A program made the position numbers and the translations under genes. A stretch of DNA of 64,000 nucleotides. It comes from Octopus vulgaris. Lineage: Eukaryota. The stretch is from the NCBI GenBank assembly GCA_951406725.2, contig OX597825.1:10540001-10604000 (forward strand), read 5' to 3'. The notes under the pieces are model-generated. The model was not told where the DNA came from, did not search any database, and saw only the letters and a list, made by a program, of their open reading frames with translations. Shown piece after piece: positions 12,972-16,218 of this stretch (its first letter is position 1; the number at the start of each line of letters is the position of its first letter).

Positions 12972-13012
<41 letters not shown>

Positions 13013-13219
13013 GTGAAATAGAAAGATGAATAATCTTGTAGTAGATTAATCAAAAGTTTAACCGATACCTTAGTAGCAAAAATCACAGCAGTAAAACAGC
13101 ACGGTTGGAGGTACAACCATATGGTGTTGCAACCGTGCGTTGGTGCGGATAATTGAAATTAGAACATTATTGGTGAATTGAAGAAATGGAGCTGAACGCA
13201 GATTGAACAGAAATCGTTT

Positions 13220-13313
13220 TATTTCATTCTACACGTGTTTCGAAAGGCACAAATTACCAAAATCCGATGGAATAATGGGACCATATTGTGTCTTTCTCTT
13301 CAGGAAGAAAATA
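13220..13313 (-). ncRNA. Type I hammerhead ribozyme, mirror copy in the inverted arm
   Basis: Reverse complement of 15594-15687. Confidence 0.85.
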
Positions 13314-13897
13314 GGAAATCCGTTGGAAAAACAAAAACAGAACAGAGGCGGAGCAAAAACAAATCGAACTATGCTCCTAAGAGCCCATGGCGAAACTGTT
13401 TATCAGTGTATGTTGAGAACCGGTGGCTGAAGAATTCAACGGGTCAGGCATCGGTCAATCATGTGGGTGAGGGGCGTAGATGTTCTTTGTGACCGAGAAT
13501 AAAGTTCTGACTATTTAAGGAATATTGGATGTTTTATAAGGGGCGAGAAAAAATCTACTTAGAGACGTGTGTGTGTGTATACTGTTCTATATACGTGTGT
13601 GTTGGCGTAGGGGTAGAAAACATTTTTTGTGTACGTGTGTGCGTTTGATCGTTCGGCTGTCAGTGGCTACTGCCGTGATGACCGTTGGGTGGCAGAAAAA
13701 AAAATATATATCATGTTTTATGTGTGTGTGTGTTCTCATCTAAGCCTGCCTTGTCAAGGAAACCCCCGCTGTGAAAAAACCAAGCCCCGTTTGTCTTACA
13801 GGAGTAATTCCCCTTGCAGTGGTTAATCGTAGATATCTTAAAGGCTATTTCAGAATTTGTTACCAAGGGCTATGGGTGCCGGTATTATTTATAAACG

Positions 13898-14186
13898 CTA
13901 TTTAAAAGCCAGATAAGTGTAACGCCGCCAATGGGGGCATCGAAAAGCCGACTGTAAAAGCCCGTTTACCATCCGGCCTCTGGCAAACAAAATATGGAAG
14001 AGTTCGGAGACACAAAGGTTGCACTGCCTTCTGCCCCTATCAAATGGGAGGGCCACCGACAAAATTGACCATTCCAGCCTGTAGCTTAGGTTCGTATCCT
14101 TCAGTCGCCATATTAGCTTACTGAGTCCCGTGGTCTGGCGCTTGTTCATGTCCCGAAAAGTTGCGTAATGGTTGGAGACACGCAAA
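13898..14186 (-). pseudogene. Inverted duplicate of the C-terminal ~95 aa of the GIY-YIG ORF
   Basis: Same peptide as the + strand ORF from RVSNHYATF to YLAFK*, truncated at the inversion junction. Confidence 0.9.
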
Positions 14187-14365
14187 TAGGCTACTTACTA
14201 AGACCCTATCACCTTTTCCGGAGGCACAGCCTCTTCCGCTCCCGGTTTAATGCTCAGTAGGAATAATTATAGTAGTAATAATGATATGAGAGCCAGTACA
14301 GTGACACATAATCTCAGCTCCAGCCAGGAGTACCCACTAGGGGTATAGTTATAAATAGGGGTGTT

Positions 14366-15007
14366 GTGGTTGACGGTAACAATGGGAGTAGGGTAGAGAG
14401 CCCCAATAGCATCCCCAGCATCATTTCCCGCAATAGCAGCACCACGGGCAGTAGCAATGACAGCACTTTGATAGATAGTGGAGAATCAGGGGTTATTCCT
14501 ATAGTTAATAGTGACGTAGTGGAAAATAGAGTAGTAAGCGGCTGCAGGTCTCGGAACGAATATAGTGACAGGAACGCAGTTCTAATTTCAGAAACTAATC
14601 CTAGCAGAATTAGATTCACGTCGGCGAACTCCAAGATCAAAAACGCCGTCTACCAATGCAAGGTTTACACGGACTCAGATGTCTTCACTTATGTAGGGGC
14701 CTCATCCTCAAGATTGTCTTTGCGTGTCTCCAACCATTACGCAACTTTTCGGGACATGAACAAGCGCCAGACCACGGGACTCAGTAAGCTAATATGGCGA
14801 CTGAAGGATACGAACCTAAGCTACAGGCTGGAATGGTCAATTTTGTCGGTGGCCCTCCCATTTGATAGGGGCAGAAGGCAGTGCAACCTTTGTGTCTCCG
14901 AACTCTTCCATATTTTGTTTGCCAGAGGCCGGATGGTAAACGGGCTTTTACAGTCGGCTTTTCGATGCCCCCATTGGCGGCGTTACACTTATCTGGCTTT
15001 TAAATAG
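14366..15007 (+). CDS. C-terminal GIY-YIG endonuclease portion of a PLE ORF (5'-truncated, RT absent)
   Basis: Translation contains AVY..(11 aa)..YVG, R..NH, T.LSKLIWRLKD, LEWSIL, CNLCVSE, MVN and CPH. This is the GIY-YIG Y/Y/G/R/H/E/N pattern with a CxxC..CxH tail, resembling from memory Hydra-clade PLE endonucleases. The GTG start is probably not the true start, and the upstream frame is broken near 14310-14348. Confidence 0.85.
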   Translation: MVDGNNGSRVESPNSIPSIISRNSSTTGSSNDSTLIDSGESGVIPIVNSDVVENRVVSGCRSRNEYSDRNAVLISETNPSRIRFTSANSKIKNAVYQCKVYTDSDVFTYVGASSSRLSLRVSNHYATFRDMNKRQTTGLSKLIWRLKDTNLSYRLEWSILSVALPFDRGRRQCNLCVSELFHILFARGRMVNGLLQSAFRCPHWRRYTYLAFK

Positions 15008-15593
15008 CGTTTATAAATAATACCGGCACCCATAGCCCTTGGTAACAAATTCTGAAATAGCCTTTAAGATATCTACGATTAACCACTGCAAGGGGAATTA
15101 CTCCTGTAAGACAAACGGGGCTTGGTTTTTTCACAGCGGGGGGGTTTCCTTGACAAGGCAGGCTTAGATGAGAACACACACACACATAAAACATGATATA
15201 TATTTTTTTTCTGCCACCCAACGGTCATCACGGCAGTAGCCACTGACAGCCGAACGATCAAACGCACACACGTACACAAAAAATGTTTTCTACCCCTACG
15301 CCAACACACACGTATATAGAACAGTATACACACACACACGTCTCTAAGTAGATTTTTTCTCGCCCCTTATAAAACATCCAATATTCCTTAAATAGTCAGA
15401 ACTTTATTCTCGGTCACAAAGAACATCTACGCCCCCTCACCCACATGATTGACCGATGCCTGACCCGTTGAATTCTTCAGCCACCGGTTCTCAACATACA
15501 CTGATAAACAGTTTCGCCATGGGCTCTTAGGAGCATAGTTCGATTTGTTTTTGCTCCGCCTCTGTTCTGTTTTTGTTTTTCCAACGGATTTCC

Positions 15594-15687
15594 TATTTTC
15601 TTCCTGAAGAGAAAGACACAATATGGTCCCATTATTCCATCGGATTTTGGTAATTTGTGCCTTTCGAAACACGTGTAGAATGAAATA
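15594..15687 (+). ncRNA. Type I hammerhead ribozyme (canonical core) in PLE 3' end/pseudo-LTR
   Basis: Stem I TATTTTCTTC/GAATGAAATA, core CTGAAGA (15604-15610), stem II GAAAGACACAA/TTGTGCCTTTC, GAAA, palindromic stem III ACACGTGT, cleavage triplet GUA (after 15677). Confidence 0.85.
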
Positions 15688-15742
15688 AAACGATTTCTGT
15701 TCAATCTGCGTTCAGCTCCATTTCTTCAATTCACCAATAATG

Positions 15743-16218
<476 letters not shown>

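Follow-up and report, generated by a model that had tools for sequence, protein, structure and literature searches.

How two copies of one transposable element come to lie head to head within a TA microsatellite, and what directs them there, is the question raised by a locus in the genome of Octopus vulgaris. The locus lies in a stretch of 64,000 nucleotides (contig OX597825.1, positions 10,540,001 to 10,604,000 of the forward strand), referred to as the window, and all positions given are those of this 64-kb window. The insertion region, 13010–15744, had been described in an initial annotation as a very recent Penelope-like insertion with near-perfect inverted arms. With high probability it is a real pair of young, head-to-head, 5’-truncated copies of a Penelope-like element (PLE) in a TA repeat. 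Both the formation of inverted insertions by PLEs and their targeting to microsatellites are regarded as open questions (PMC8557442). The structural layout of the locus is already known, and the new part is the family, which lacks a zinc linker. We give about an even chance to the following combined proposal. The element would represent an undescribed octopod sub-lineage of Hydra-type PLEs in which the CxCX5C zinc-finger linker is replaced by a long Ser/Asn-rich tether with a conserved cysteine-free end motif; yet it would have reached a very high copy number and insert into (TA)n, so that the zinc linker would not be what aims Hydra elements at TA microsatellites. At the same time, the locus would have preserved one instance of double priming, in which reverse transcription was primed by both target strands and began at two RNA sites separated by 153 nt.

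Anatomy of the inverted insertion and its family

The insertion and its borders comprise the following features:

12974–13009: (TA)18, left half of the presumed target (Tandem Repeats Finder, TRF)
13010–13162, minus strand: 3’ extension (“tail”) of 153 bp, family sequence present in the left copy only and absent from the right copy
13163–14186, minus strand: left arm, a 5’-truncated copy with the C-terminal part of the endonuclease (EN), the 3’ untranslated region (UTR) and a hammerhead
13220–13313, minus strand: type I hammerhead motif of the left copy, core start at 13303, predicted cut after 13230, mirroring the right copy
13898–14186, minus strand: C-terminal portion of the GIY-YIG endonuclease; the truncation point directly follows the YIG-like motif
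14185–14187: head-to-head joint of the two 5’-truncated copies, with a 2-bp overlap (14185–14186) with upstream sequence of the family and no palindrome
14187–14718, plus strand: 5’ part of the right copy only, with the last residues after the thumb of the reverse transcriptase (RT), the Ser/Asn-rich linker and the start of the endonuclease
14312–15007, plus strand: open frame of 231 aa, linker and whole Hydra-type GIY-YIG endonuclease
14719–15744, plus strand: right arm with endonuclease end, 3’ UTR, hammerhead and 3’ end at (TA)n
15594–15687, plus strand: type I hammerhead motif of the right copy, core at 15604, predicted cut after 15677
15744–15779: (TA)18, right half of the presumed target (TRF)

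Pairwise alignment of the arms 13163–14186 (1024 nt) and 14719–15744 (1026 nt) yielded no substitution and three indels, all of them in homopolymer runs: two additional bases on the right at 15138-9, one on the left at 13704 and one on the right at 15432. This agrees with the three homopolymer differences reported in the initial annotation, and the endonuclease end and hammerhead ascribed to each arm are likewise found in both, as a core motif and as open reading frames (ORFs; 14312–15007 on the plus strand, 13898–14194 on the minus strand). The copies are unequal. The left one extends over 13010–14186 (1177 nt) and has 153 more bases at its 3’ end, the right one over 14187–15744 (1558 nt) with 532 more bases at its 5’ end; the 532-bp middle is this 5’ extension of the right copy and not a spacer. 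The 3’ ends of both copies point outward into (TA)n. Only the right arm runs straight into its array, the left copy having the family sequence 13010–13162 in between. Of the earlier description of both ends as element 3’ ends running into (TA)n, the outward orientation and the (TA)18 on both sides hold, while the ends are not equivalent; the asymmetry of the copies had been missed, as had the loss of the CxCX5C linker. Neither copy is a subset of the other, and thus neither should have been templated from the other, which argues against a fold-back or hairpin read chimera. The flanks of the insertion are not mirror images of each other. A hairpin scan found no palindrome of at least 5 bp at 14186 or 14719, and at 14225 a single hairpin of 5 bp. 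The sequence at the joint shows neither a duplication nor a leftover of (TA)n, and BLASTn detected no further copy of the arm in the window.

Inverted arms with a one-sided extension correspond to the pseudo-long terminal repeat (pLTR) organisation of endonuclease-containing (EN+) PLEs. PLEs typically show an inverted 5’-truncated copy at the 5’ end and a tail on one side (PMC8557442), and head-to-head has been called the most frequent arrangement (PMC3846280). Insertion into (TA)n has been described for almost all Hydra families (PMC8557442). The rarity of the structure that the initial annotation implied is therefore not borne out. Penelope, Naiad and Adineta vaga Pen2a (PMC8557442, PMC3846280) also have an inverted 5’-truncated copy and a tail at one end only; the insertion differs from these in its 1-kb arms, which include the endonuclease end, in the lack of a palindrome at the joint, and in that a target duplication cannot be recognised within a (TA)n target.

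Twenty public sequencing runs from nine studies contain part of the stretch, 19 of them at least half of its words; their labels comprise two organism labels and one low-share metagenome. We compared 13010–14800 with the contigs of four runs (X1, possibly an RNA run, X3, X7 and X17), excluding X20 (wastewater, share 0.10) and X21–X24 (share 0.00). Per run 2643, 8197, 2832 and 48 contigs could be placed, of which 1210, 2863, 1267 and 22 were at least 99% alike. All 30 bins of the region were covered in each run, and every part of the insertion is high-copy family sequence. Contig depth was high in the middle (14187–14718) and in the tail, for the latter in four of four runs, and dropped from the 3’ region toward 14187 as in 5’ truncation. 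The bin with the joint was among the lowest, which indicates that the joint is not a high-copy feature. Loose ends of listed contigs before 14185 run on into upstream family sequence in three of the four runs (X3, X7 and X1), which makes 14186/14187 a joint of truncation and inversion at which two bases are shared, in line with the junction of two 5’-truncated copies placed there by the initial annotation. No contig bridging the joint was seen among the 32 contig pieces listed, an absence that proves nothing given 13,807 further pieces.

A 1176-bp contig of X1 matched 13010–13134 with no differences and continued for 1051 letters beyond 13010; judging from this one contig, the 153-bp tail is likely to be the start of the next tandem unit. 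No recognisable ORF start was found in the tail in three frames. Five listed contigs of X17 join (TA)n at 13163 with one further family base, these ends lying within ~3 nt of the right copy’s end, which suggests a recurrent start site. Insertion into (TA)n, a feature of the Hydra clade, is thus seen at both ends of this locus and at the loose ends at 13163. In addition, family contigs switch to TA-rich sequence at 13067 (X17, inside the tail) and at 14328 (X3, within the linker), which suggests that some copies are very short or that additional end positions exist.

Regarding the age of the insertion, X1 contigs showed no substitutions relative to the window over 14185–14467, 14469–14602 and 14574–14800. 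A 713-bp X1 contig differed from 13373–14087 by five substitutions and six gaps, the substitutions being common to both arms, and at position 14089 every contig placed there in the four runs carries another letter. The arms thus agree with each other at letters that few or none of the family contigs show, which points to one source template. The contigs have one base more at the homopolymers at 14213 and 14326, as well as at 13470 and 13762, the latter being two of the three arm differences; all four are likely read errors in the window. With a rate of 0.0036 per million years (PMC13282606), 0 substitutions in ~1,025 paired bases correspond to a 95% upper bound of 0.4–0.8 million years, assuming no conversion and no polishing bias. 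By this measure the insertion is young. The initial annotation had taken the arm identity to imply recent activity or continuing homogenisation; this identity bears on youth and not on present-day activity. Recently active PLE families are known from Octopus vulgaris, with 31 families and 336 insertions (PMC13282606).

Endonuclease, linker and hammerhead

The last 124 residues of the 231-aa frame match 2708 proteins at E≤0.001 in a full HMMER search. Pfam gave no match for this ORF and weak GIY-YIG matches for two of eight homologs, word-index protein searches with the ORF gave no match, and a PDB sequence search with the endonuclease alignment returned 0 matches. An AlphaFold model was built for the residues from 14552 onward (84-row alignment, pLDDT 85). 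Its top two among 48,161 chains in VIA-align were I-TevI (Z 9.6, root-mean-square deviation 2.4, 89 aligned) and T4 EndoII (Z 9.3, root-mean-square deviation 3.1, 111 aligned); Foldseek ranked T4 EndoII first (E 0.041), with none at E≤0.001. The model supports a GIY-YIG endonuclease fold for the predicted protein. The residues that the alignment shows as conserved (Y, YxG, R, H, E and N) are all present, in the plus-strand motifs AVYQC (14645), YVG (14690), RVSNH (14723), CNLCVSE (14882), N (14939) and RCPH (14963).

The Hydra clade is characterized by CxxC-E...N-CxH without CCHH (PMC8557442). In the window a CxxC and a CxH flank the conserved E and N (CNLC..E...N...CPH), and the CCHH motif is absent, with one Cys between the first Tyr and YVG and no internal CxxC. 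Among the top 150 homologs CxxCxxE is found in 135, and together with CxH in 111. Judged by these motifs the endonuclease is of Hydra-clade type and closest to Octopus sinensis gene models. The Penelope-like identity given in the initial annotation is supported, and with these gene models as nearest named relatives its suggestion of a cephalopod family is plausible.

A single chain of 544 aa, the sister protein P0151 carries RT (YRDD) and thumb, followed by a Ser/Asn-rich linker of 184 residues and by EN. Its residues 359–516 match the window at 49% over 158 columns, and its thumb-end residues (303–345) match 14188–14214 and 14217–14324 in two other frames; the reading frame of the right copy switches at the homopolymer runs near 14213 and 14326. 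The RT core itself is truncated away in the window, which also holds no N-terminal half of the family’s protein; RWK and DKT motifs and the RT phylogeny are further characters of the Hydra clade. The in-frame translation of the family’s loose ends before 14185 resembles the thumb-end motif of P0151. We infer from these loose ends and from P0151 that the RT would lie upstream in the family of the insertion. An RT-less unit encoding only the endonuclease was considered and dropped on the same grounds.

What the window lacks is the CxCX5C motif before the endonuclease. In its place there is a ~165-codon Ser/Asn-rich linker with one isolated Cys and, at its end, a conserved motif devoid of cysteine. 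The thumb-end and YIG motifs occur together in 43 proteins, and CxCx4-8C is present in 40 of these, the exceptions being P0151 and two proteins with short linkers (P0070, P0149). Long Asn-rich linkers that retain a CxCX5C-type motif also exist (P0213, P0214, P0015, P0155). In a quick tree of EN only (101 rows, with 50 of the 150 matches left out as short alignments, one chance match and lower-ranked unlabelled rows) the window falls into a clade of nine rows (SH-aLRT 99) together with P0004, P0095, P0001, P0076, P0077, P0107, P0079 and P0008. Its testable members have the cysteine-free motif where other proteins have the zinc motif; P0107 has a lone CxC, and P0079 and P0008 are too short to judge. 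P0004 and P0095 are Octopus sinensis gene models, and the cluster of P0095 contains P0151. On these sequence features we file the element as a Hydra-related variant with the endonuclease, hammerhead and target features of the clade and without CxCX5C. No paper on a zinc-linker-less octopod Hydra lineage was found in the literature searched, outside of which most subscription papers lie.

Compared with the C-terminal EN+ PLEs of the Hydra clade (Craig et al. 2021, PMC8557442), the insertion is alike in the endonuclease with CxxC-E and N-CxH and without CCHH, in the hammerhead in the 3’ region, in the (TA)n target and, as seen in P0151, in the upstream RT. It differs in the linker, in a tail of 153 bp versus 30–40 and in a hammerhead with a 51-nt stem II region. 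Hydra-1_Obim of Octopus bimaculoides (supplement of PMC8557442) shares with it the clade, an octopod host, the (TA)n preference and the core heptamer of the hammerhead. In a comparison by eye with partial text of the supplement, Hydra-1_Obim keeps CxCX5C and a short linker, and its EN, hammerhead stems II and III and 5’ sequence differ. With linker, EN and hammerhead all different, the family of the insertion does not appear to be the same as Hydra-1_Obim. A natural Hydra relative without the zinc linker tests the proposal of linker-mediated (TA)n targeting. The weight of this test is limited, as Chlamys elements are already microsatellite-biased without the CxCX5C linker. Asn-rich inserts between RT and EN have been reported in Adineta vaga (PMC3846280), and this, as well as the young PLE families of Octopus vulgaris, limits it further.

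Hydra-type PLE fragments are annotated as host genes in the gene sets of Octopus sinensis, O. bimaculoides and Argonauta hians (P0004, P0095, P0151, P0153, P0161 and P0015, named dyrk1-like, myb-like, GATA zinc finger-like, DDB_G-like or hypothetical), a misannotation caused by their Asn-rich linkers. A practical point is thus that sister families pass as host genes in Octopus gene sets.

Each copy contains a predicted type I hammerhead with core and three stems intact, a feature of the Hydra clade that is given here as a structure and not as an assayed cleavage. In the right copy the core at 15604 is followed by a long stem II, GAAA at 15666 and a palindromic stem III, and stem I is paired at nine of ten positions. 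All 45 positions of the Rfam model Hammerhead_1 could be aligned with 14.8 bits, below the gathering score of 34, with a stem II region of 51 nt; the Rfam scan of 11–18 kb (7 kb) did not list the hammerhead and returned microsatellite noise only. The descriptor was also found in 6 of 500 shuffles of the arm. The hammerhead is not the minimum-energy fold: the unconstrained fold has no stem I and is not unusually stable (z 0.46), and the fold constrained to the hammerhead is 2.5 kcal/mol worse. The copies extend 67 nt (right) and 220 nt (left) beyond the intact predicted cleavage site. The template was therefore presumably uncut or re-ligated RNA and not a linear cleavage product, so that the ribozyme-processed RNA assumed in the initial annotation is not supported. 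Searches for the hammerhead pattern in metagenome and viral contigs, and for the protein in metagenome contigs, gave no loci. A non-LTR (long terminal repeat) retrozyme, in which every unit of a non-coding tandem array has a type I hammerhead, was rejected for the insertion, which is coding and inverted with one hammerhead per copy.

Origin of the head-to-head arrangement

The outward 3’ ends in (TA)n, the non-nested copies, the shared rare letters and the lack of a palindrome at the joint favour double priming, which we consider fairly probable and which had already been proposed in the initial annotation as priming by both target strands. In this scenario, possibly a single event, the GIY-YIG endonuclease would cut both strands of a (TA)n tract, and each 3’ end so freed would serve as primer for reverse transcription, with element RNA that had escaped cleavage (tandem or circular) as the template. 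Synthesis would begin at two positions within the RNA, 67 and 220 nt beyond the hammerhead site and 153 nt from each other, stall after ~1558 and ~1177 nt, and yield 5’-truncated products that would be joined via the 2-bp overlap at 14185–14186. In LINE-1 twin priming, adjacent and essentially non-overlapping parts of one RNA are copied. For the insertion, in contrast, ~1 kb including the 3’ end was copied twice, so that tandem or circular RNA or two molecules would be needed. The two are alike in that complementary DNA is primed from both target ends and the products are joined inverted (10.1101/2024.12.14.628481).

A precedent in vitro is PAc, the Poseidon element of Anolis carolinensis (Frangieh et al. 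2024, PMC11167929), which cleaves and extends both target strands and initiates at two internal RNA sites, by which the tail is defined; mainly uncleaved RNA is used, and hammerhead cleavage is not needed. The insertion resembles PAc in its two 3’ ends at internal positions downstream of an uncut hammerhead, in the AT-rich target and, putatively, in the extension of both strands. The start sites of PAc are adjacent (tail 30–40 nt), and the inverted joint is not modelled in the accessible part of that paper. A young, abundant family with unequal head-to-head ends offers a genomic test of double priming, since its 3’-end pairs should cluster at few sites.

Several points weigh against double priming or against the locus as its witness. 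An overlap of 2 bp lies near what chance would give, the tail at 153 bp far exceeds the 30–40 bp described (PMC8557442), 13010 is known as an end from this locus alone, and PAc belongs to a different clade. A mechanism is not demonstrable from one locus, and the window is without the RT core of the insertion’s family. Furthermore, assembly polishing could erase small differences between the arms, summed contig depth does not equal copy number, and with no listed contig across the joint the locus is without independent confirmation.

Instead of two priming events, one target-primed reaction could have been followed by a jump to antisense RNA, or by self-priming on an antisense template, to give the inverted copy, as in the model proposed for head-to-head Penelope structures (Arkhipova et al. 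2013, PMC3846280). A jump at 14186/14187 onto antisense RNA would produce the same top-strand order, and the two shared bases fit a jump as well as end joining. The self-priming model, however, rests on palindromes at the joint, which are missing at the lengths scanned for, and a jump would not fix the position of the right end, whereas the listed X17 contigs repeatedly meet (TA)n close to it; we regard this route as unlikely. A history in two steps, with a solo 5’-truncated insertion followed by a second insertion, a repair-driven inversion or gene conversion that gave rise to the inverted arm or made it uniform, appears quite unlikely to us, too. In its favour, gene conversion is possible between inverted repeats, the abundance of the family is very high (2643–8197 contigs per deep run) and (TA)n is reused as a target; in this case the locus could be older than it looks. 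Against it, the joint is free of (TA)n remnants and duplications, identity reaches both arm ends exactly, and the middle also shows 0 substitutions relative to X1 contigs, which indicates that the whole unit is young and not the arms alone.

An assembly or read artefact, either a hairpin chimera or a mis-join of two near-identical copies from different loci, is improbable. Homopolymers that differ between window and contigs hint at long-read errors in the former, the joint is not seen in the listed contigs, and separate copies would end in (TA)n too, as the window has 54 (TA)8+ arrays; assembly problems at such structures have been cautioned about (PMC8557442). A fold-back read, however, would leave a palindrome at the fold and mirrored flanks, whereas the centre has 532 unique bases, the left end 153, and the flanks are unrelated. 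As for a mis-join, 5’ ends sharing two bases offer an assembler no overlap, and the same arrangement has been reported for many PLEs. We attach hardly any probability to the whole inverted unit being a replicating non-autonomous element of fold-back or terminal-inverted-repeat type that moved as one piece. Its near-perfect 1-kb arms do resemble long terminal inverted repeats, but listed contigs at 14185 go into upstream family sequence and not across the joint, depth in the joint bin is low, and the ends are unequal.

Neighbouring features of the window

Other traces of PLEs surround the insertion. The segment 11339–11905, with a hammerhead core at 11657 on the minus strand, is a second element between two (TA)n arrays, whose type I hammerhead shares its palindromic stem III with the insertion. 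It shows no DNA similarity to 13010–15744 and no tblastn match with ten Hydra-type proteins, and is likely the 3’ end of another PLE family. At 8485–8959 (plus strand) there is a decayed N-terminal region of a Hydra-type RT with stops and frame switches (best tblastn E 2.4e-6, P0160). Two short segments between (TA)n arrays, 15780–16070 and 11075–11260 (minus strand), contain degenerate hammerhead-like words at ~15950–15976 and 11170–11205, as seen by eye, and are possibly short non-autonomous PLE derivatives. Since 15780–16070 abuts the right (TA)18, this array may have been hit more than once. Further downstream, a 2.4-kb (AAT)n-type array with higher-order variation is located at ~41970–44400, followed by a GGT/GGC-rich repeat at 44650–45390.

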